The position numbers and the translations under genes were made by a program. A DNA stretch of 64,000 nucleotides from Candidatus Woesearchaeota archaeon. Its GTDB lineage: Archaea > Nanobdellota > Nanobdellia > Woesearchaeales > GW2011-AR9. Of this stretch, positions 36,531 to 53,297 are shown piece by piece; position 1 is the stretch's first letter; each line of letters starts with the position of its first letter. The notes under the pieces were generated by a model. The model was not told where the DNA came from. It saw only the letters and a list, made by a program, of their open reading frames with translations, and made no database searches. The stretch covers positions 1,213,873 through 1,277,872 of the forward strand of contig JBAYIU010000001.1 in assembly GCA_041665465.1 (NCBI GenBank), written 5' to 3'.

Positions 36531-36544
36531 TAAGAAAAATTAGC
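36531..36544. repeat. casposon target-site duplication, left copy (14 bp)
   Basis: taagaaaaattagc identical to 53171-53184. Confidence 0.9.
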
Positions 36545-36589
36545 GGGTATATAGATATAGGCCTGTTTTTCGGACTATATCTAAACCCT
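36545..36589. repeat. casposon left TIR
   Basis: gggtatatagatataggcctgtttttcggactatatctaaaccct is the exact reverse complement of 53126-53170. Confidence 0.95.
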
Positions 36590-36681
36590 CCCTTATTTTT
36601 TAAATAATCTAAAAGTTCAAAAATAGTTATTCGCTTTTTTAATAACAAGATTTATTAAATTTAACCCTTATTAATTGTTAA

Positions 36682-37998: not shown

Positions 37999-38691
37999 AT
38001 GGATCCAGATTCACATAAAAATCCTAAGATTTGGAATTGGTGGTTTTTATCCTATTTGGTTTTAGTGATTATATTTGGATTATTATTCCGCTGGCAATAC
38101 TCAAATTGGTTAAATTTTACCTGTCTTGGTATGTTGATATTAATACAATTTGTTTTTAATATAAAGATTCAGTACGAGTTAAAATTTAAGATAATAAACT
38201 GGTTTTCTTTCTTCTTGCTTATCTTAGTGTCCATCGCTTATACTTTAACAAAGCTGAATAATGTGGGTCTTGCTCTTTTTACTTTATTAGTAGCTGTTTT
38301 TATCACTTTTCTTGTTGCCTTGATAGTTCATGTACTAAATTTGTGGAAGAGTAAGGGAGATAGAAATAAAAGAGTTATAACGACAATTACTTATTACTTA
38401 GCCCTTGCCTTTACGGGGATCATTCTTTTTGGATATATTTTCGCTTTGATAGGGATTAACCACCCCGAGAATAGTTTAAAATTCACTGGGGTTAACAATA
38501 CCTTAAATGGTCAGGATTACATTTATTTTAGTGCCGTAACTTTCTATTCCGGAGCTTTGGGAGATATAATTCCGTTAGGATACTCCAAAATGGTAATGGT
38601 GATGGAGTTAGCTTTTAGTTATATAATTCATATTATCATATTGGGGATTGTTATTTCTAAATTTGGTTATAATTCCAACGAAAGAAAGTAA
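37999..38691 (+). CDS. ion-channel (K+-channel-like pore, Ion_trans_2-type) protein with non-canonical filter
   Basis: YIYFSAVTFYSGALGDIIPLG + following TM matches the pore-helix/filter/inner-helix pattern, but filter TFYSGALGD replaces T[VI]GYGD; about five preceding TMs. Confidence 0.55.
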   Translation: MDPDSHKNPKIWNWWFLSYLVLVIIFGLLFRWQYSNWLNFTCLGMLILIQFVFNIKIQYELKFKIINWFSFFLLILVSIAYTLTKLNNVGLALFTLLVAVFITFLVALIVHVLNLWKSKGDRNKRVITTITYYLALAFTGIILFGYIFALIGINHPENSLKFTGVNNTLNGQDYIYFSAVTFYSGALGDIIPLGYSKMVMVMELAFSYIIHIIILGIVISKFGYNSNERK

Positions 38692-40044: not shown

Positions 40045-40317
40045 TTACTTCAAGGAATAAAGTCTCTCAGTCCTTTTAGTCTTATCATTCTTTCTTTGCT
40101 TAACGAATCCTAAAACTTCCATAGTATCCAAGGCTTTCTTAATTGTTCTCCATTGTGACTTAGTTTTAATAGAAATCTGCCTGACTGAGAGCTCACCTTC
40201 TTTCTCAAGAAGCTTTTTTATCTCCTCTATTATTTGGGTAATCGGCTTCCTTACCATATCTGCATAATAGTACCGATACATTTTTATAGCAAGTCTGCAT
40301 AATTGTGCATATATCAC
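40045..40317 (-). CDS. winged-HTH DNA-binding protein
   Basis: GELSVRQISIKTKSQWRTIKKALDTMEVLGFVKQ; possible alternative start at 40257. Confidence 0.55.
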   Translation of the reverse strand: MIYAQLCRLAIKMYRYYYADMVRKPITQIIEEIKKLLEKEGELSVRQISIKTKSQWRTIKKALDTMEVLGFVKQRKNDKTKRTERLYSLK

Positions 40318-41837: not shown

Positions 41838-41873
41838 TTAATCCTAGTTAATCTTTTAATCCCATTTAATCCT
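41838..41873. repeat. four phased TTAATC(C/T) repeats at the Cas1 3' end
   Basis: Copies start at 41838, 41848, 41857, 41867 (9-10 bp spacing). Confidence 0.5.
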
Positions 41874-43077
41874 TGATCCCCACTTTCATCTTATTCCATT
41901 CTGCGAGTCTGTCTCTAACTTGCTTGTTCATCGTAAAGGGCTTGTCGGAAGCTGCGTTTTTCTTCATATAATGCAAGGTCCCTTTAGAAAAGCCCAAATT
42001 CTTCCAATCGGTGTAAGAGATACCCATAATTTTCTTGCGAATATCATCGCTATCTTGCCTTTTTAATCCTTTAATCCCTGACAAGAATGTAATCTCCTTC
42101 TTTTTACCCACCAAAAGCTGAGCTAAATTTGTCGTTTGTTCTTGAATAACATATCTCCATGCCCATTGCTGATTATTAAATTCAGCTTTTTGATTAAACA
42201 TCTTTTCAATTTCAGTTAATACTTTTTTAGCACCTGTAGATCTGAGCCTTAAATTATAATTTTCAGTCCTAATAAAGTCCTTTTTCTCCATAATATCGTT
42301 CTCAATTAAACTAATCACAACCAAATCTATTAAGAATCTAAACGGTTCTTGTAAATCATATGCCAAACTGTTCTTTCCAAGATTGGCTTCATGTAAAAAG
42401 CCTATGTGTGTGTCTAATCCGGCTGTGTTAATCGCTTTCAAACATTCAGCTTCTAATATAGCGTAACCATAATTAAGCAAGCAATTGACAGTATCTCCGG
42501 CACCCCAAGGTCTCTTTTGAAATTCTCTTGTTGTAAATTCATACTTTTTCGGTACTATTTTCCTCAATTCTTGCCAATAAAAACTCGCGATTCTTCCTTC
42601 TGTTATCATTAAATTCTTGATGGTTTTGGCTTTCCTAAAATAAGGTAATTCTTTAGAGAAATCAGTCCTTAATTCCGGATATCGTAATTTTAACCAGTCT
42701 AATGTTTCTTTGGTTCTTTCAAATTTAGCTTCAAGAAATTTTCTTGCCAAATCCATTCTTTTTTGAGGATCAGAAAATGCTTGATATTGTGCAAACTTTG
42801 TCTTTACTTGTACGCTTTCAGGCGGAAGCATGGTTGTAAGAAGTTTACCCTCCCAATTAAGAATTGAGATCTGAACATTATGCTTAATTAGCCATCTAAT
42901 GGCATCTATTGATATATTTCCACTTCTACCGTAAATTACTATGTGGTTTACATCAATTCGTTTCGGAGAGAAGATATACTCTTCATTATTTTTCCCAGCC
43001 TTATCTGTGCCGTTTTTGATATGAATTTTTGAATTATCAATCTTAATCGATATTCCATACCCATCTAACAAGAGCAT
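41866..43077 (-). CDS. cas1: Cas1-family casposase with C-terminal HTH
   Basis: NYGYAILEAE, THIGFLHE, YDLQEPFRFLID (Cas1 catalytic E/H/E region); C-terminal ISYTDWKNLGFSKGTLHYMKK HTH; ATG 43077 preferred (GTG 43083 in track). Confidence 0.9.
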   Translation of the reverse strand: MLLLDGYGISIKIDNSKIHIKNGTDKAGKNNEEYIFSPKRIDVNHIVIYGRSGNISIDAIRWLIKHNVQISILNWEGKLLTTMLPPESVQVKTKFAQYQAFSDPQKRMDLARKFLEAKFERTKETLDWLKLRYPELRTDFSKELPYFRKAKTIKNLMITEGRIASFYWQELRKIVPKKYEFTTREFQKRPWGAGDTVNCLLNYGYAILEAECLKAINTAGLDTHIGFLHEANLGKNSLAYDLQEPFRFLIDLVVISLIENDIMEKKDFIRTENYNLRLRSTGAKKVLTEIEKMFNQKAEFNNQQWAWRYVIQEQTTNLAQLLVGKKKEITFLSGIKGLKRQDSDDIRKKIMGISYTDWKNLGFSKGTLHYMKKNAASDKPFTMNKQVRDRLAEWNKMKVGIKD

Positions 43078-43079
43078 TT

Positions 43080-43943
43080 TCACTTTTTACCCTCCTCAAT
43101 TCCAAATGAAGAATCGGATATCCCTAGTAAAGTTAATGCTTTAAATCTGATTTGACTAATGAATTGTGCCGCCCCCTTTTTCTCATCTTTTCTTAGCTGT
43201 AGTTCTAAATTAAATAGTTCGGTTCTATGTTTTTCAATTATTTTAGCTGTAGGACTATGAATGTAATCGTTTTGTACTATTTCTGGAGATTCTAAGTTTG
43301 TTGCGTCCTTTCTTAGTTGATCAATAACTATATCTTGCTCATACTTTCCTAAGAAAAAGATGATGTGTGTTCGAAGATTAGGATATTCTCTTATTTTTGG
43401 AGGAATATTTTTTAGAAGAGATTTTAGGATTTCTATAAACTTAGAAGTATTATAGGGTTCTATTCCCTTTTTGAACACTTCATTGTTAGTTATTCTAAGT
43501 AACATATCGAGAAGTTCAAAATCTTTTGTACTCATATTTTTAACTAAAATATCTAGTTGTTTAGGTGAGAGAGCATATCTCTTACTATAAATTTCTATCT
43601 CCTTAAGAGCCATCTTTACTTCAATTGGAGATCCATTTTCAAGATATTTCATTATTAAGTCAATATGTTCTTTTATCCCATAAGAAATAGTAAGTGTGAT
43701 GAATGATGCTCGTTTATCTTCATTCTTAATACCAAATATTTGAAGAGCTTCTTCGGTTGTTAATCTCTTTAGAAGTCCCTCTTCTACCATTTTTGATAAG
43801 TTACTTTCAACAGTAGGTTTACTAAATCCAATAATTCCTTTATTTAATTCTACTAATTGGCTTACTAATTTCTCTCTTCTAATAACGGGCAGTTTAAATA
43901 AGATTTCTTCCACATTTGTCTTAAAGTCTGTCTGAATATTCAT
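43080..43943 (-). CDS. wHTH-containing protein immediately upstream of cas1
   Basis: LVSQLVELNKGIIGFSKPTVESNLSKMVEEGLLKR; stop lies 2 nt before the Cas1 ATG. Confidence 0.55.
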   Translation of the reverse strand: MNIQTDFKTNVEEILFKLPVIRREKLVSQLVELNKGIIGFSKPTVESNLSKMVEEGLLKRLTTEEALQIFGIKNEDKRASFITLTISYGIKEHIDLIMKYLENGSPIEVKMALKEIEIYSKRYALSPKQLDILVKNMSTKDFELLDMLLRITNNEVFKKGIEPYNTSKFIEILKSLLKNIPPKIREYPNLRTHIIFFLGKYEQDIVIDQLRKDATNLESPEIVQNDYIHSPTAKIIEKHRTELFNLELQLRKDEKKGAAQFISQIRFKALTLLGISDSSFGIEEGKK

Positions 43944-44820: not shown

Positions 44821-45246
44821 ATGGTCACTAAAGAATTAGAGTTAAGATTTTGGCATGAGGAAACACTTAGAGGAAATAAGCTTCCAATTAATCCTTTATT
44901 TAATCTTAACTCGGTTTTTGAAGAGCACCATATTTTTGGGAAATCAAATTCCAATAAAACAGCCTTAATCAATAAGGAAAGACACGATTTTATCACTAAT
45001 AGACTTAATCTATTGCCTATAAAATGTCGAAAAGACAAAACAGTGATCTTTTGGAGTAATGTTGCTTCAACTTTAGAATTAATGGCTTTTGAAATTCGGC
45101 ATTTCATTTTCTTATATACCCATTCTCAAAATGAAGAAGCTAATGAATTCACGTTGAGCAGAGGTTATCATCAAAAATTTATTGACAAAATTATTTTAAG
45201 CATATGGAGAAAAATAGAAAATGGAAAACAAAGAAATAATGGTTAG
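44821..45246 (+). CDS. possible HNH (His-Me finger) nuclease
   Basis: EEHHIFGKSNSNKTALINKERH fits HH..N..N..H loosely; lacks the usual Cys pairs. Confidence 0.4.
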   Translation: MVTKELELRFWHEETLRGNKLPINPLFNLNSVFEEHHIFGKSNSNKTALINKERHDFITNRLNLLPIKCRKDKTVIFWSNVASTLELMAFEIRHFIFLYTHSQNEEANEFTLSRGYHQKFIDKIILSIWRKIENGKQRNNG

Positions 45247-47884
45247 AACATACACAAAATTGAAGAATATCAAGGATAAAATAACTAATAAAAATCATAA
45301 CTATCAAGAATATAAGGATATCTTAGTCTTTGATACCGAAACAACCGCGGATGAATTCCAAAACCTTAAATTTGGATTTTTCCAGATATATTCTTTAGGA
45401 AATTTGAAATTTCAAGGCATATTTTATGAACAGATAAATATAACAGATCAGGAATTTGAAGAACTAAAAAAATATGATAAAGACTTTCTCTTTATGACCA
45501 GAGAAGACTTTGTTCATAAGGTATTTTATCCAACAGTATATGATAACAACGCTCTGTGTGTGGGTTTTAATATATTCTTTGACTTATCAAGACTAGCTTT
45601 CAGATTCCCTACCCCACGAAAAGGCGCAACACATATTCAACTTCAATTAAGTAAGTACCAAAATTACCCAGATATTGAGGTGGACCATAAAGGTGGAAAT
45701 TTAACTTTTTTTAGATTTGGAAAGGCGTTTGATTTTCATAAAAAGAAATATAAAAACCATTTTGCTGGCAATTTCTTAGATTTGATGAGTTTAGCTTGTA
45801 CATTTTCAGATAAAAAAAGAATTTCACTCAAAGATGCTTGTAAATTGTTTGATACTACTGAAAAAAAGATAGAAGATATCAAGCATGGAAAAATCACTAA
45901 AGATTATATCAGATATTGTGTGCAAGATGTAAAAGCCACTTACTCGTTATATGAAAAACTACTTGATGAATTCAAAGAATATACCATCAATAAAGATATT
46001 TGTAAAGTGTATTCTTCTGCATCTTTGGCAAAAAGTGCATTACAACAATTGGGAGTAAACCCGTGTATGAAACAACACCCAAACATCCCACATAAGCATA
46101 TAGAAAATTGGATGAAAGCATATTATGGTGGGAGATGTGAGTTAATGTACAGAAAAATTCCCGTTAAGGTAACTGTTCTGGATTTTCGTAGTATGTATCC
46201 AACAACAACAATTATAATGGATTTGTGGAAGATGATTATTGCTGAGAAAATAATTGAGGAAGATGCAACAGAGAAAGTAAAAAAGATACTAGAAACGGTT
46301 GATTTACATTATTTACAAGATAAAAATAACTGGAAAGGACTGGTGATACTTGTTAAAATAATCCCCAATGATGATTTTCTTCCTCAAAGATGTTGTTTTA
46401 AAACTAAGTCTAATATCTCAAATATAGCTTTAAATCATATTACTTACAAAGGGGAGTTATATTATGCTTTACCGGATATAATTAGTTCAGTTCTAAAAAC
46501 AAGCAGAATACCCCAAATTACAGAAGCAATTGAGTTTATTCCAATAGGGGTTCAGAAAACTTTGAGAAAAACCCCCTTATTAGGAATAAACATTGATCCA
46601 AGAGAAGATAATTTCATTAAAACAATTATTGAAAGAAGACAACAAATAAAAGATCAATTTGAAAAAGAGACAGATAAAGACAAAAAGAAATATTATGATG
46701 GGCTTCAAAAAGCACTAAAAATTTTAGCTAATTCTTTAACATATGGTATCTATGTTGAGATGAATAAGAAAGATTCTAACAACCTCCCTTTTGAATTAGA
46801 AAATTTTGATGATGAATCAGACTTTATTATGAACTCTTATGAAGAAGAAGGAGAGTATTTCCATCCCATCGTTGCAGTAAGTGAAATTGCTGGAGCCAGA
46901 CTTTTCTTAACAATGGCCCAAATCTTTGTTGAAAAGGCAGAATATCCACATTATTATACAGATACGGATAGTATGTTCGTCTCTCCTGAGATAGCTCAAG
47001 AGTTACAACACTTTTTTCAACCATTAAATCCGTATAGTTTTGATAAGCCGTTATTCAAACCTGAAAAAGAGAATCTCTTATTTTATGGAATAAGTAGTAA
47101 AAGATACGTTTTATACGAAATAATAAAAGATAAAATCGTTATTTATGGTACAGAAGAAGAGAAAGGGTACAAACTTCACGGATTAGGACATCTAACCGAC
47201 CCATTTTGTAGGAAAAACGGGGAAGATTGGCACAAAGAAATTTGGATGGATATTCTAAAGTTACATTATGGTAAAGTTACAGAATCAAATTTAGAAGAGA
47301 AATACTCTCAAAGCCATTCAATTTCAAATTTGACTGTATCAACTAAATCAGTATTTGAAAGATTTGCCAAGTATAATAAAGACAAACCGTTTGAAAAGCA
47401 AATAAAACCTGCAAATTTCTTTCACATAGGAGTTAAAGCTAACGGAGTAAAACCAATAAGCCCATTACGTGATAATCCCCAGGAAGCCCCCTATGCCCAT
47501 TTTTTGAATTATGAAACTTCAGAAACATTGATTGGAGAAGAATATTGGGGTACGCTGTGGTTATCATTACAAGATTATCTAAACCACCCAGAGAGTAAAT
47601 TTGATGGGGATATTGGTTGGCTTAAACGGAAACACATAGAAGTTACAAAAGTGGATAAAATAGGGAAAGAAATTAACGACTTGGATAAACATATCTTAAA
47701 AATAACTCTACCAAATAGATATTTAACAACAAAACAAAAAGAAGACCTAATCTTAAATATGGCGGTAGAAGAAGCTAAAAAGAGAGGAATATCCAAAAGT
47801 ACTTTATCTGACCAGAAAAAGTATATTAAAAACAACGAGAAAATTAAATGGGGTTCTAAAACGATGAGGAAGTTACTGAGTTAA
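45221..47884 (+). CDS. polB: family B DNA polymerase
   Basis: ExoI FDTETT, ExoII GFNIFFDLS, ExoIII YCVQDV, motif A DFRSMYPT, motif B KILANSLTYG, motif C YYTDTDS, KRY in SSKRYVLY. Confidence 0.92.
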   Translation: MENKEIMVRTYTKLKNIKDKITNKNHNYQEYKDILVFDTETTADEFQNLKFGFFQIYSLGNLKFQGIFYEQINITDQEFEELKKYDKDFLFMTREDFVHKVFYPTVYDNNALCVGFNIFFDLSRLAFRFPTPRKGATHIQLQLSKYQNYPDIEVDHKGGNLTFFRFGKAFDFHKKKYKNHFAGNFLDLMSLACTFSDKKRISLKDACKLFDTTEKKIEDIKHGKITKDYIRYCVQDVKATYSLYEKLLDEFKEYTINKDICKVYSSASLAKSALQQLGVNPCMKQHPNIPHKHIENWMKAYYGGRCELMYRKIPVKVTVLDFRSMYPTTTIIMDLWKMIIAEKIIEEDATEKVKKILETVDLHYLQDKNNWKGLVILVKIIPNDDFLPQRCCFKTKSNISNIALNHITYKGELYYALPDIISSVLKTSRIPQITEAIEFIPIGVQKTLRKTPLLGINIDPREDNFIKTIIERRQQIKDQFEKETDKDKKKYYDGLQKALKILANSLTYGIYVEMNKKDSNNLPFELENFDDESDFIMNSYEEEGEYFHPIVAVSEIAGARLFLTMAQIFVEKAEYPHYYTDTDSMFVSPEIAQELQHFFQPLNPYSFDKPLFKPEKENLLFYGISSKRYVLYEIIKDKIVIYGTEEEKGYKLHGLGHLTDPFCRKNGEDWHKEIWMDILKLHYGKVTESNLEEKYSQSHSISNLTVSTKSVFERFAKYNKDKPFEKQIKPANFFHIGVKANGVKPISPLRDNPQEAPYAHFLNYETSETLIGEEYWGTLWLSLQDYLNHPESKFDGDIGWLKRKHIEVTKVDKIGKEINDLDKHILKITLPNRYLTTKQKEDLILNMAVEEAKKRGISKSTLSDQKKYIKNNEKIKWGSKTMRKLLS

Positions 47885-48086: not shown

Positions 48087-51000
48087 ATGTTCGATTCAAA
48101 TTATTATTCCGAATCATTAAAGAGAATAACAACCCTTGCCGGAGCTAGATATCAGTCCAATACTAATATCGAACTACCGATTATGCAACATTTTGATTTC
48201 TTCACACGAAATAGTATTTTTTATACAGATATCAGATCATTATATGGTAACTTATCGAGAAGTTTAGATAACTTTACTTTAAGTAAAGAAGTGAAATATG
48301 AAAGATATACTGATTTTATCTTCCAAAAAAAATTACTGTTAAAACGGCTGAAAAAAGTATTTCCTTATAATTCACAGATTATCCCCTGGAATATCATATC
48401 AACCCACCTAAGATTTATAAAATTTTATCTAAATCAGTATTCACATTTGTTAAGAGATTATATCTTAAAAAATAGTGAGATTAATACCTCTTTAAAAAAT
48501 GAAATTGAATCTAAACAACATTTTTTAAGAGAAGCAGATCGTTATCTTGAATCCTTGTATAACATATCTTCTGGATTGAATGGATCTCTATCTAATTCTA
48601 AATTATTATTAATTTCAGGAGGAGCGGGTAATGGAAAAACTCATTTACTAGTTGATGTATACCAGAGAAGAATTAGTGGTGAAGTGAAGCAACCAACTTT
48701 ATTTTTATTTGGAGAACAATTCTCTTCTAAAGAGAATATTTGGACTCAAGTAATAAACCAGTCTAAACTTCCATTTAAAAACCACAAGGAATTATTAGAT
48801 GAGCTGAGTGTAAGGTCATTTGAAGGGAATACGAATGGGTTAATAATCATAGATGCATTGAACGAAAGTGAACCACATCTCTGGAAAGAAAATCTTCGTA
48901 CAATAATAAATGATATTAAGGGATATCCGAATGTCTCACTAGTTATAAGTGTTAGAAATGGGTACCAAGAAGAGGTCTTTGATACCAATATAAAGGAACA
49001 ATTTATAGAAATTGAGCATCATGGTTACTCTCAAGACATACTATGGGATGTTACTGAGAAGTATTTTGAATACTATAATATTACTTATCCTGACTTCCCT
49101 TTATTAAATCCAGAATTCCAAAACCCCTTGTTCTTATTATTCTTTTGTAAAGCAAATAAAAACTCAAAGTTACCGGCTCGGCAGGAAAATGGGAACTGGT
49201 TAAAAAGTTTATTTGAAAGATACGTTATTGATGAAGGGCACGAAAAAGTATTAAAAAAGCTAAATCCTTCCTCTGTAAAAAAGTATGGGGAGGAGAATAT
49301 TTTATGGAGTGGTATAATCAAAAAAGGAATTGCTCCTTGGATGATATTTAATAACACAAGCACTATTGATGAAGAAAATTTAAAAAAGATAGTTGAAAAA
49401 TATCTCCCTGATTATAACGTTGATCAAGTAATTAAATTATTAGAGAATGGGAATATCCTTAACTCATATTGCTACTCCAAAATAAAATACTTTAAATTAC
49501 CTTTTGATAAATTTAGTAACCATATCATTGTTAGAACACTACTGGAAAATATCCCTAAGAAAGACCGTATTGATTCTTTTAAAGAAAATAATCCAGTGGG
49601 GAAATTTATATTAGCAAATAAATATAATTTTGGAATACTTGAAGCCCTTTGTATTCAAACACCGGAATTTTGCGATAAGGAATTATATAAATTAACACCT
49701 TATCTAGAAAAAAATCGATTATTATGGGATGCATTTACAGAGAGTATTATCTGGAGAAATCCAAATAAAATTAGTCCTGATTTGATTTTATTAATAAGAA
49801 ATAATCTAGAATTAAGAAAAGATTTCTTATTAAAGCCATTATTAAATCTTGCCCACATCGCAAAACATCCCCTTAATGCTGATTTTCTATGTCCAATATT
49901 AAAGAAGCAAAATATGGTGGAAAGAGATTCTTGGTGGTCAATTTTTTTACACAATAATTATGAAGAGGAAGGAGAAATCGTAAACAGAATTATTAGTTGG
50001 TCTATAAGTCACAACCAAAAACAAAAAATCTCTTCTGAAGTAATTAGATTGTATTCAATAACCTTAGCTTGGTTTTTGACTTCTTCAAATAGATCTATTA
50101 GGGATAAGGCTACAAAAGGATTAATCAATTTACTTAAGGATCATTTGATTATACTAAAATATTTATTGAATTATTTTAAGGATACTAATGATTTATACGT
50201 TTTGGAGAGATTATACTGTGTAACTTATGGATGTTGTTTATTAAATCCATCCGATTCAGAAAATGTTAAAGAAATTGCACTTCAAGTTTACAAGAACATT
50301 TTTGAGAATAATACTCCTCCCTCCCACATACTGTTGAGAGATTATGCGAGAGGCATTATAGAAACTGCAATAAATAATGGTATAAGTCTTGGAATAAATG
50401 AAGATAATATTAACCCTCCTTATAAAAGCCAATTTCCCGAGAAGCTTCCTTCAGATGAGGATATAAAAAGATATGAATTAGATTACCACTCAAAAGATGT
50501 TTATTTTAGCCAAAATAAAATTATTTCTTCAATGCAACCCGAACATACTACTCTTCATGGCAATATGTATGGGGACTTTGGAAGATATGTATTTCAAAGT
50601 GCACTATCTAATTGGGATGTTTCTAAATCAAAGATCACAATGCAACAACTAAGTAATTTATCTGTCAAAATTATCTTTGAAGATCTAAAGTATGATGTGA
50701 ATTTGTTGGGAGAATTTGATCGAAACTTAGATAGGTACTCCACATTTAATAGATCAGAACGGGACATTGAACGTTTTGGAAAGAAATATCAATGGATTTC
50801 ATTTCATATTGTTGCATCATTGGTTGCAGATAATTTTAAATTCAAACCACTACTTTTGGATACGGAATCAACAGAAATATACCGAGGTGCATGGAGTCCA
50901 CATATCAGAGATATAGATCCTAGCATCTCGATTAATTCAATCAGATTACAAAAGAAGCCAGAATTTAAAAACTTCCAAAAATATATTGATACATATGACA

Positions 51001-51794
51001 TTATGAAAGATGATTTTAGCAAATGGATTGTTTCATCCGGAGATTTATTAGATTTTGAAAAATGGTTAGATTTTAAAGATGATTCTAATCTCTTTTGGAT
51101 GAATTTAGGTGGTTCTTATGATTGGTATGAAGAAACATTACCGGAGGAAAAAGAGTATGAAAATTCGAAACGAGGTTTAAGAATTTGGTTTGAGAGTTAT
51201 CTTGTTAAAAAAGAGGAGTCTAAAATATTATTTAATTCTATTAAGGAAAAAAGTTTTTGGGGTGATTGGATGCCCAAGGGAACCACTTCTTATGAATTTT
51301 TTTTAGGGGAATATCCTCACTTTAAAGCGTGCCAAGATACAATTAGAAATTACGATTGTTGGACGGACATTAGTTCATTTGGGAAAAATTTATCTGCTAA
51401 GGTACTTCCAACATATGTAACTTACTCAACAGAAAGTAGTTTAGATTATTCTATAAATGGGGGATTTAGTATTAAACTACCCAACAAAGAAATAATTGAC
51501 AAGATGAATTTAAAATGTAATTCAAAAGGACAATCTTTTTTTGAAGATGAGCTGGTTTTCTTTGATAATTCTATAACTGAAACAGGTTTCCCAAATGGAA
51601 TTATTGCTAATAAAAAAAAGTTATTAGAATTTTTAAACAAGAATAATTTTGTTTTGTTTTGGAAGGTAATGATAGAAAAAACCATAATCGGTGGAAACAA
51701 AAATTTACAGGATTTTAAACCAAAAGAAATAAGCCTTTTAGTAATCATGAAGGATAACGGAACACTTGATTTAGTGAGTAAAGTAGAAAAATGA
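48087..51794 (+). CDS. large P-loop NTPase (STAND/NACHT-like) with helical-repeat and C-terminal domains
   Basis: Walker A GGAGNGKTH (nt 48618-48641), Walker B LIIIDALNES; HEAT-like SIRDKATKGLINLLKDH; 1235 aa. Confidence 0.6.
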   Translation: MFDSNYYSESLKRITTLAGARYQSNTNIELPIMQHFDFFTRNSIFYTDIRSLYGNLSRSLDNFTLSKEVKYERYTDFIFQKKLLLKRLKKVFPYNSQIIPWNIISTHLRFIKFYLNQYSHLLRDYILKNSEINTSLKNEIESKQHFLREADRYLESLYNISSGLNGSLSNSKLLLISGGAGNGKTHLLVDVYQRRISGEVKQPTLFLFGEQFSSKENIWTQVINQSKLPFKNHKELLDELSVRSFEGNTNGLIIIDALNESEPHLWKENLRTIINDIKGYPNVSLVISVRNGYQEEVFDTNIKEQFIEIEHHGYSQDILWDVTEKYFEYYNITYPDFPLLNPEFQNPLFLLFFCKANKNSKLPARQENGNWLKSLFERYVIDEGHEKVLKKLNPSSVKKYGEENILWSGIIKKGIAPWMIFNNTSTIDEENLKKIVEKYLPDYNVDQVIKLLENGNILNSYCYSKIKYFKLPFDKFSNHIIVRTLLENIPKKDRIDSFKENNPVGKFILANKYNFGILEALCIQTPEFCDKELYKLTPYLEKNRLLWDAFTESIIWRNPNKISPDLILLIRNNLELRKDFLLKPLLNLAHIAKHPLNADFLCPILKKQNMVERDSWWSIFLHNNYEEEGEIVNRIISWSISHNQKQKISSEVIRLYSITLAWFLTSSNRSIRDKATKGLINLLKDHLIILKYLLNYFKDTNDLYVLERLYCVTYGCCLLNPSDSENVKEIALQVYKNIFENNTPPSHILLRDYARGIIETAINNGISLGINEDNINPPYKSQFPEKLPSDEDIKRYELDYHSKDVYFSQNKIISSMQPEHTTLHGNMYGDFGRYVFQSALSNWDVSKSKITMQQLSNLSVKIIFEDLKYDVNLLGEFDRNLDRYSTFNRSERDIERFGKKYQWISFHIVASLVADNFKFKPLLLDTESTEIYRGAWSPHIRDIDPSISINSIRLQKKPEFKNFQKYIDTYDIMKDDFSKWIVSSGDLLDFEKWLDFKDDSNLFWMNLGGSYDWYEETLPEEKEYENSKRGLRIWFESYLVKKEESKILFNSIKEKSFWGDWMPKGTTSYEFFLGEYPHFKACQDTIRNYDCWTDISSFGKNLSAKVLPTYVTYSTESSLDYSINGGFSIKLPNKEIIDKMNLKCNSKGQSFFEDELVFFDNSITETGFPNGIIANKKKLLEFLNKNNFVLFWKVMIEKTIIGGNKNLQDFKPKEISLLVIMKDNGTLDLVSKVEK

Positions 51795-51879
51795 TTACAT
51801 CCATTTTTTACAGGGGAAAAATTGATTTGACAAAGTAAAGTCAGGTATTTGTAAAGTTAAAGAATCACTTCTTAAAAAT

Positions 51880-52953
51880 TTATTCATACTTTTTATGTTT
51901 AAAGTCGATCTCTAAAATAGTGGTTCTTTTATTTTCTAACTCTTTACTGAATTCGGTTTCTCCCTCAAAAAATTCTAATACATAAGGGTTGTTTTCAAAG
52001 AATAATCCGATTATCTCTTGAAATGAGGATATGCCTTTGTCAGCATCAATTCTAAATAATTTTAATCTCTTACACTCTTTTCTTATAAGGGAGTTTTTTA
52101 ATTCTAAGGAATTTCTTCTTTTGAATTTATCATAATTCCCATATACCCTTATAGCGCCATCAATATGGTTGCAAGAGGTTAAATCATTGTTTGTTATTGC
52201 ATGCAAATATCTCGTGTAAAATTTATGGTCTTCATTTTGGAAAAATAGGGTGTCTTCAAATTTAATGCCATTACTCGGAATTAACTCTTCAATTTGAAAA
52301 TGCCATTGACCATTTTGAAAGTTAAATAAAAATTCTGTTTTATCCAATATTGGGGCATCAAATGAAGAAGGTCCTTTTATTATGAATTCTTTGTCTGCTA
52401 AAGATTCTCTTACATGCTCTATTGTTTTTGGACCTTGCCAGTGAGATAAAAGCGTAGTATTTCTCCTAGTTTCAGGAATTCCTAAACAATTTGTATTGAT
52501 CGGGAGTTTTAAAGAGAAATTACCTTTCCAATTTTTAATTACCCATTCAGTGAAATGAAAATTTTTACTAAAAGCGTTTTCAAATATTAAATATTTGTTT
52601 TTGTATTTAAATCCGTTTTTATTTAAATCGGAATTATAAGGTACTTCTATAAGTCCATCTTCATCTAATTGAGATTTTAATTCAGAAAACTCATTAAAAG
52701 CATAATCTTTTTTTTCTTCTACAGCAACGTCCCATAGGTAATATTTTGTTGTTTTCATGGGATCAATTTTAATATTTTCTCCAAGAATTCTCCATAATTG
52801 GAATAGTTCTAAATCTTTATTGCTTTCTAGTTCTTTGTAAGCTTCTCTAACCTCTGCGGGTAGGAAATTGTTTTCCCATAAATTTCTTACTAGAATGTTA
52901 TTTTTACTGCAAAGTTCAACTAATTTTGCAATTTTCTGTGACAGCTCATTCAT
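51880..52953 (-). CDS. hypothetical protein (357 aa), convergent with the NTPase
   Basis: ORF only. Confidence 0.5.
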   Translation of the reverse strand: MNELSQKIAKLVELCSKNNILVRNLWENNFLPAEVREAYKELESNKDLELFQLWRILGENIKIDPMKTTKYYLWDVAVEEKKDYAFNEFSELKSQLDEDGLIEVPYNSDLNKNGFKYKNKYLIFENAFSKNFHFTEWVIKNWKGNFSLKLPINTNCLGIPETRRNTTLLSHWQGPKTIEHVRESLADKEFIIKGPSSFDAPILDKTEFLFNFQNGQWHFQIEELIPSNGIKFEDTLFFQNEDHKFYTRYLHAITNNDLTSCNHIDGAIRVYGNYDKFKRRNSLELKNSLIRKECKRLKLFRIDADKGISSFQEIIGLFFENNPYVLEFFEGETEFSKELENKRTTILEIDFKHKKYE

Positions 52954-53125
52954 GTGGCTGAAATAATGTAAGTAATATAATAAATTTGTGGAGACTGGAG
53001 TTGAACTTAAACTTTATTTGACATAACTCTCTATGTAATTAAACCTAAGTTTCAGCTGAATATAAAGGCTAACTCCTGAAACCCATTCTTCCAAAAAGAG
53101 AGTATATTTCAAGAATAAAAAGGGA

Positions 53126-53170
53126 AGGGTTTAGATATAGTCCGAAAAACAGGCCTATATCTATATACCC
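53126..53170. repeat. casposon right TIR
   Basis: Exact reverse complement of 36545-36589. Confidence 0.95.
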
Positions 53171-53184
53171 TAAGAAAAATTAGC
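53171..53184. repeat. casposon target-site duplication, right copy (overlaps the last 4 nt of the tRNA)
   Basis: taagaaaaattagc. Confidence 0.9.
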
Positions 53185-53297
53185 CCCGTGCGGATTCGAA
53201 CCGCAGTCAATGCCTTGCTTTCAAAGTGTCCAAAGGGCACTATCCCTAGACTTCCCCATTCTTAAATGGAGGAATTAGTCCGCTAGACGACGGGGCT
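53181..53297 (-). tRNA. tRNA-Gln(UUG) with two apparent introns (D-loop about 30 nt, anticodon loop about 14 nt)
   Basis: Acceptor AGCCCCG/CGGGGCT + A73; T-arm TGCGG-TTCGAAT-CCGCA; anticodon stem GTGCC/GGCAT with CTTTGG..A; D-stem GTCT/GGAT split by an insert containing hairpin CTCCATT-TAAG-AATGGGG. Confidence 0.75.

Follow-up and report, generated by a model that had tools for sequence, protein, structure and literature searches.

The window analysed here is a 64,000-nt stretch of the genome of a Candidatus Woesearchaeota archaeon (assembly GCA_041665465.1, contig JBAYIU010000001.1), and coordinates refer to it unless another contig or locus is named. It holds a complete casposon of 16,626 bp, bounded by terminal inverted repeats (TIRs) and a target site duplication (TSD), and inside this element lie two convergent genes. 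One encodes a 1235-aa Avs2-like protein (P0001) and the other a 357-aa protein (P0002). We address here the nature of both genes and their relation to each other and to the element. An earlier sequence-only reading of the window had described both open reading frames (ORFs), the Walker motifs of P0001 and the 85-nt convergent gap exactly, and its description of the two genes as casposon cargo was borne out, as the TIRs and TSD enclose them together with Cas1 and PolB. The two genes and the parts of P0001 are as follows; the short form of Avs2 is defined further below.

48087..51794 (+): P0001, 1235 aa, effector-less Avs2 homologue with PADLOC, PDB and NCBIfam matches
48087..48611 (+): P0001 aa 1-175, Avs2 helical extension ahead of the ATPase, with no effector before it; aa 16 onwards aligns to EcAvs2 from residue 179
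48618..48644 (+): Walker A motif GGAGNGKTH, aa 178-186; G178, G181, G183, K184 and T185 do not vary among 31 short-form Avs2 proteins
48840..48869 (+): Walker B motif LIIIDALNES, aa 252-261; D256 and E260 are invariant in the same 31 proteins
50682..51698 (+): Avs2 C-terminal (sensor) domain (CTD), aa 866-1204; aligns to EcAvs2 1111-1451 (E 1.6e-25)
51880..52953 (-): P0002, 357 aa, orphan cargo gene with 33 close homologues and 827 relatives by profile

By sequence comparison, P0001 is a clear homologue of Avs2 (AVAST type 2) over its whole length. It was matched by the PADLOC Avs2 profiles PDLC02164 (E 5.5e-273) and PDLC02162 (E 7e-225), the latter through profile position 1352 of 1379, and a search of PDB sequences returned EcAvs2 (9O4E chain A, 1484 aa) with an E value of 1.8e-113. 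The alignment with EcAvs2 falls into two blocks, in which aa 16-795 of P0001 pair with residues 179-962 and aa 866-1204 with residues 1111-1451. A large protein database yielded 1276 homologues, several of which are labelled "AVAST type 2 anti-phage system protein Avs2", while the Pfam NACHT match was sub-threshold (22.8 vs 26.7 bits). The ATPase switch is intact, with Walker motifs that are invariant in the family. The helical extension that precedes the ATPase has been described for Avs2 (PMC13601566), and in VcAvs2-trypsin the domains have been assigned as effector (1-203), STAND (204-700), TPR (701-1170) and CTD (1171-1461; bioRxiv 10.64898/2026.08.25.746987). The suggestion in the sequence-only reading of a STAND antiviral sensor thus holds to the extent that the protein falls in an established antiviral STAND family, but it is not a new STAND. 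Its suggestion of a possibly new effector domain also gave way. The N-terminal ~170 aa correspond to the helical extension, the C-terminal stretch of about 400 aa that had been left unassigned aligns to EcAvs2 as the sensor CTD preceded by the last part of the TPR region, and the protein has no effector domain at all.

P0001 has no N-terminal effector domain. It starts at the opening motif of the Avs2 core, AG.RY...N.ELPI (here AGARY…NIELPI, aa 18-32), with 0 aa of additional N-terminal sequence, whereas in long Avs2 relatives this motif comes after a ~167-aa domain, a caspase or another domain. Consistent with this, the first ~170 positions of the PADLOC Avs2 profiles are unmatched by P0001. 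The short start is not a start-codon artefact, because there is no ORF in the 202 nt between the end of polB and the P0001 ATG, because the three closest homologues, at 54-56% identity, match P0001 in both length and start, and because 71 of the best 119 homologues are also short, here meaning a start within 25 aa of the core. A further 42 of the 119 carry about 167 aa or more in addition, a caspase domain among them. The ~167-aa domain of the long forms, which had been expected to be Mrr-like, gave no Pfam match and was left unnamed. A search of the genome for an orphan effector, for which the N-terminal domain (175 aa) of a long Avs2 served as query, gave none, although this query had no positive control and shows little.

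Short Avs2 proteins form a large, unnamed set that is common in bacteria of the candidate phyla radiation (CPR) and in archaea. In a FastTree of the N-terminal half, which is unrooted and built from a biased sample, the short state requires at least three changes, and P0001 belongs to a fully supported, all-short clade of nine that is nested among effector-bearing forms. We further assembled 80 Avs2 loci from species-representative genomes with 6-kb flanks (L008-L087), 13 of which encode short forms. Six of these are from CPR bacteria (Moranbacteria, Roizmanbacteria, two Paceibacterota, Saccharibacteria and Peregrinibacteria) and five from archaea (Thermoplasmatota, Methanosarcinales, Pacearchaeota, Syntrophoarchaeum and one unclassified), with one Mariniplasma and one unclassified bacterium making up the remainder. 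These counts, uncorrected for sampling, lean strikingly towards archaea and lineages with small genomes. No conserved neighbour of short Avs2 proteins was found at the sampled loci, and the loci of the three nearest homologues have unrelated neighbours.

At two archaeal short-form loci, one in a Thermoplasmatota metagenome-assembled genome (MAG) and one in an unclassified archaeon, an Orc1/Cdc6-like AAA+ gene adjoins Avs2 (L009:9188-10273 (-) and L011:4525-5613 (-)). The two Orc1/Cdc6-like genes are 59% identical and differ in orientation. They are probably replication initiators of a shared type of integrated element, rather than partners of Avs2.

Between its TIRs, which a TSD flanks, the element that carries P0001 encodes a Cas1-solo and a family B polymerase, the make-up of a casposon. 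Its features outside the two cargo genes are given below.

36531..36544: left TSD, 14-mer taagaaaaattagc, the same at both ends and read directly
36545..36601: left TIR, 57-nt arm, 93% complementary to 53114-53170
41866..43083 (-): casposase (Cas1-solo), PF01867 E 2e-65, TIGR00287 E 7.3e-61
45221..47884 (+): family B DNA polymerase (PolB), PF00136 E 6.9e-10
53114..53170: right TIR, 57 nt, pairing with the left arm at 93% complementarity
53171..53184: right TSD, copy of taagaaaaattagc, overlapping the last 4 nt of the tRNA gene
53181..53297 (-): probable intron-bearing tRNA gene and target of integration; its acceptor and T-arm, GCGGTTCGAATCCGC followed by CGGGGCTA, are readable directly

The Cas1 of the element is the only one in the 1.6-Mb genome, and the GC content of the casposon is 0.30, compared with 0.36 in its flanks. 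Acceptor and T-arm sequences adjoin the right TSD, and the same arrangement is present at a related casposon (L093, genome G132). ARAGORN and Rfam gave no tRNA call at the right end, even at an E value of 0.1. The target is probably a tRNA gene with one or more introns.

Two smaller ORFs of the element are also worth noting. The first (37999-38691 (+), 230 aa) has no assigned function and has homologues of 26-29% identity at L001 12519-12905 and L022 3974-4597. One homologue lies two genes from a P0002 homologue in an integrase-bearing island, and the other, in a Methanosarcinales MAG, is ~1.3 kb upstream of a short-form Avs2. This distribution hints at a common archaeal pool of mobile-element genes. 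The second (40045-40317 (-), 90 aa) has weak PADLOC matches to CasR- and CARF-associated winged-helix regions (E about 1e-4) and is probably a small DNA-binding regulator of the casposon.

Two casposases from the same order, 63% (G132) and 58% (G305) identical to that of the window, each mark a complete related casposon:

L093 6735-17893: G132 casposon, 11.2 kb, 29-nt TIRs, TSD TAATAAAAAGTAGC, at a tRNA 3' end
contig C1 ~9887-30690 (L094/L095/L096): G305 casposon, 20.8 kb, its own TIRs, TSD AAAATAATGAGAC

All three elements have in common cas1, two small adjoining genes (o287 and o213) and polB, and the window PolB is 41% identical over its full length to the PolB of each of the other two. Neither of these carries Avs2 or P0002. 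Following polB, the G305 element has instead a type II restriction-modification pair, consisting of a D12-class adenine methyltransferase (PADLOC MTase_II, E 1.6e-110) and an AlwI-type restriction endonuclease (E 8.7e-39). In the same position the G132 element encodes a 679-aa protein and a convergent 331-aa protein, in a geometry like that of the Avs2/P0002 pair; these two proteins gave no convincing Pfam match and none in PADLOC or PHROGs. Because related casposons with a common core hold different genes there, the region from polB to the right TIR is an exchangeable slot, and it repeatedly holds defence genes. P0001 and P0002 are two independent, exchangeable cargo genes of this slot. Neither Cas1 nor PolB was found at any of the other 87 Avs2 loci, so they provide no further link to casposons. 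Casposon accessory genes "implicated in defense" (methyltransferase, restriction endonuclease, Sir2-like and KAP ATPase) have already been reported (Krupovic et al. 2014, PMC4046053; 2016, PMC4779613), and we found no report in the literature of an Avs gene on a casposon.

P0002 had no match in Pfam, PADLOC, NCBIfam or PHROGs, and the best hit in a search of PDB sequences had an E value of only 0.25. Its AlphaFold2 model has a predicted local distance difference test (pLDDT) score of 92.2 for the whole protein and 92.6 for the core. Foldseek with this model gave a best PDB hit at E 0.011 with a template modelling (TM) score of 0.13 and none in BFVD, and the best VIA-align Z scores were 5.6 for the whole model, covering the N-terminal helices only, and 3.9 for the core. 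Nine residues are invariant (D204, E222, E223, H251, C261, H263, D265, R269 and K298) and recur in a family of ~690-aa proteins, which suggests that P0002 may be an enzyme with a metal site. Searching 1.84 billion representatives with a profile recovered 827 relatives, mostly members of this ~690-aa family, in which a P0002-like core lies at about residues 130-390. No relatives were found in viral contigs. Pfam, PADLOC and PHROGs contain no model of the ~690-aa family, and a comparison of 79 loci revealed no conserved neighbour. Its members (P0171-P0294; L097-L178) also have an invariant H-D pair in their first ~60 residues.

Six loci of the close P0002 family have enough context to be read, and an integrase, resolvase, recombinase or transposase gene is nearby in every one; one of the six also adjoins a GajA-like OLD nuclease and a type III restriction-modification system. 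Across the superfamily, neighbours include an Avs1-type metallo-β-lactamase (MBL) with a NACHT protein, GajA/GajB with SIR2, Drt8 and other reverse transcriptases, E1-E2/JAB, and mad3. We read P0002 as a stand-alone gene of a large, uncharacterised and probably enzymatic superfamily found at mobile-element ends and in defence islands. The superfamily has a confident predicted fold unlike anything solved, recurs in defence islands and is a candidate new defence enzyme.

The sequence-only reading had presented the 357-aa gene as a partner of the STAND gene, had proposed checking the pair for co-occurrence across genomes, and had held that a failure of the two to co-occur elsewhere would speak against it. 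Neither tblastn with seven members of the P0002 family nor hmmsearch with a narrow and a broad profile detected the family in the 80 Avs2 loci, and no Avs2 or other large STAND gene lies beside P0002-family genes at their six loci. The two genes were thus never found together elsewhere in the sample examined, and the proposed partnership falls away. Because co-occurrence is 0/80 at Avs2 loci, 0/6 at P0002-family loci and 0/3 at the loci of the closest homologues, the pair is a chance juxtaposition of two cargo genes.

Given its homology to Avs2, we evaluated P0001 as a sensor of the large terminase. Mutagenesis of EcAvs2 has identified W1266, E1362, E1444 and E1462 as terminase-contact residues (PMC13601566). 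The three positions that can be mapped are all kept or conservatively replaced in P0001 (W1266 to Y1024, E1362 to E1116 and E1444 to E1197), and E1197 is invariant in the short-form alignment. In VcAvs2-trypsin, the terminase ATPase domain is gripped between TPR and CTD (bioRxiv 10.64898/2026.08.25.746987). Complex prediction with P0001 aa 540-1235 and residues 1-300 of T7 TerL gave a median score of 0.35 against 0.00 for the best control, a weak pass of a mark that 58 of 80 solved complexes attained, as did 2 of 110 mismatched pairs; scores of 0.60 or below were obtained by seven of the 80 solved complexes and by both passing mismatches. Contacts agreed between runs to at least 60%, and the pLDDT of the partner was at least 79.

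These data allow us to propose a mechanism. By homology with EcAvs2 and VcAvs2-trypsin, P0001 would use its TPR/CTD pocket to bind a tailed archaeal virus's large terminase at the ATPase domain and would then tetramerise in an ATP-dependent manner. For the output we favour a self-sufficient action, because short forms have no conserved partner beside them and move as single genes between very different hosts. Our tentative proposal, at somewhat less than even odds, is that terminase would be trapped in inert complexes and genome packaging blocked. An unrecognised built-in toxic activity appears less probable. Supply of an effector in trans is unlikely, as is the lack of any defence function in P0001, and the likelihood that P0002 in particular is that effector is slight.

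Overall, the locus is best explained as an Avs2 reduced to sensor and switch, consisting only of helical extension, ATPase, TPR-like repeats and C-terminal domain and carried as exchangeable cargo of a probably tRNA-targeting DPANN casposon, with P0002 as a separate gene; we give this explanation a probability of about 0.7. Several observations weigh against it. P0001 scores 880.9 bits with the NCBIfam Avs2 equivalog NF041813, under the cut-off of 1000, and the best stretch covers only profile positions 4-840 of 1317. Because it is under this cut-off and lacks the tripartite Avs architecture, P0001 is classed as an Avs2 variant and not as an ordinary member. The linker from TPR to CTD is 71 aa in P0001 and ~150 aa in EcAvs2, about 80 fewer, so the ligand could differ. 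The complex prediction with T7 TerL is weak support, which points to likeness and not to binding, because a like complex (9O4E) has already been solved and the predictor may have reproduced it. No terminase of the Terminase_6N family was found in this genome, and we know of no virus that infects this host. Similarly, we are aware of no experiment in which an effector-less Avs2 provides defence, and the trapping of terminase is purely inferred. Published Avs systems no longer kill the cell once the effector is deleted (PMC13581612), and a protein reduced to the sensor may therefore be inactive by itself.

The arrangement could instead be a two-gene system, in which the effector-less Avs2 senses infection and the convergent P0002 acts as the effector in trans. 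The 85-nt spacing of the genes in one cargo slot, the lack of an effector in the sensor and the enzyme-like set of invariant polar residues in P0002 are all consistent with this, as is the proximity of the P0002 superfamily to defence genes, once directly upstream of an Avs1-type MBL and a 1941-aa NACHT protein. We nevertheless consider it very unlikely, since the convergent orientation rules out co-transcription and the distribution of the genes speaks against a pair: the P0002 family or superfamily is in none of the 80 Avs2 loci, including the 13 with short forms, a large STAND neighbour is at none of six close-family P0002 loci, the three closest Avs2 homologues have other neighbours, and the ~690-aa relatives lack a conserved neighbour in 79 loci.

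Functional doubts about P0001 itself take two forms, both poorly supported in our estimate. It could be a decaying remnant of a formerly complete Avs2, which the casposon still carries although it has shed its effector there and no longer functions, as the missing defining effector, the score under the NCBIfam equivalog cut-off and the nesting of its small short clade among effector-bearing forms in FastTree would allow. Against this, the 1235-codon frame is unbroken and its Walker motifs are invariant, start and length are shared with three homologues of 54-56% identity, and the supported clade of nine is entirely short. In addition, short forms are the majority of the best 119 homologues and occur in widely conserved clusters, such as one with 60 Legionella member sequences, which fits long-term purifying selection; decay is rated as improbable as the two-gene system. 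Least probable of all is that the gene serves the element rather than host defence, for example if the sensor-only Avs2 formed mixed oligomers with a full-length Avs2 of the host and so poisoned it, or if it acted as a module for addiction or competition. The gene does lie on a selfish element, and sensor-only NLR (nucleotide-binding, leucine-rich repeat) fragments can be dominant negatives in other systems. However, no second Avs2 that could be poisoned is present in this genome, terminase genes are absent from casposons, other short forms are in ordinary defence-island or integrase settings, and a plain restriction-modification system occupies the same slot of a related casposon.

Returning to the sensor-and-switch Avs2 that we prefer, it is doubtful, yet worth stating, that effector-less Avs2 proteins may constitute a distinct, self-sufficient class of antiviral STAND proteins, which would stop tailed viruses without cell killing by way of ATP-bridged terminase tetramers. 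If so, this non-suicidal way of acting would be of advantage to mobile elements and to symbionts with tiny genomes (DPANN, CPR), and the casposon would supply an immunity gene that is ready for use and independent of the host. In prokaryotes, Avs proteins are the equivalents of NLR immune receptors, and to our knowledge the Avs mechanisms resolved to date all end with an N-terminal killing domain. That Avs2 has a large and conserved branch which moves horizontally and lacks the effector raises the question of whether a pattern-recognition receptor can protect by binding alone. The locus is a compact natural example in which the Avs2 gene travels as a single unit on a self-replicating transposon, making this question testable. 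Casposons are thought to have given rise to CRISPR adaptation, and the locus adds evidence that they carry exchangeable defence genes in DPANN archaea.

Comparison with known systems places the two proteins and their element as follows. EcAvs2, solved by cryo-EM with the PhiV-1 terminase (PDB 9O4E; PMC13601566), has a helical extension, STAND ATPase, TPR-like region and CTD that are all homologous to those of P0001. P0001 differs in lacking residues 1 to ~165-178, the N-terminal effector of EcAvs2, and in being archaeal and casposon-borne. KpAvs2, which has an Mrr nuclease and acts with Avap1/Avap2 (PMC11564622), and VcAvs2-trypsin-MBL (bioRxiv 10.64898/2026.08.25.746987) have the same Avs2 core and sensor architecture as P0001, and both demonstrate that an Avs2 can function together with accessory or effector genes encoded apart from it. 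In contrast to P0001, however, they have an N-terminal enzymatic domain and conserved adjoining partner genes.

The closest relatives of P0002 are the ~690-aa proteins (e.g. Rufibacter glacialis WP_149098690.1), with which it shares a ~260-aa core, the invariant E-E, H, H-x-D, R and K constellation, and occurrence as stand-alone genes in variable or defence regions. At half their size, P0002 is without their C-terminal half of ~300 aa and possesses a three-helix N-terminal domain of its own. The element itself resembles Family-2-type casposons (PMC4046053, PMC4779613) in its Cas1-solo and PolB, its TIRs, its 14-bp TSD and its probable insertion at a tRNA 3' end, and is set apart from them by its DPANN host and by an Avs-family sensor as cargo.

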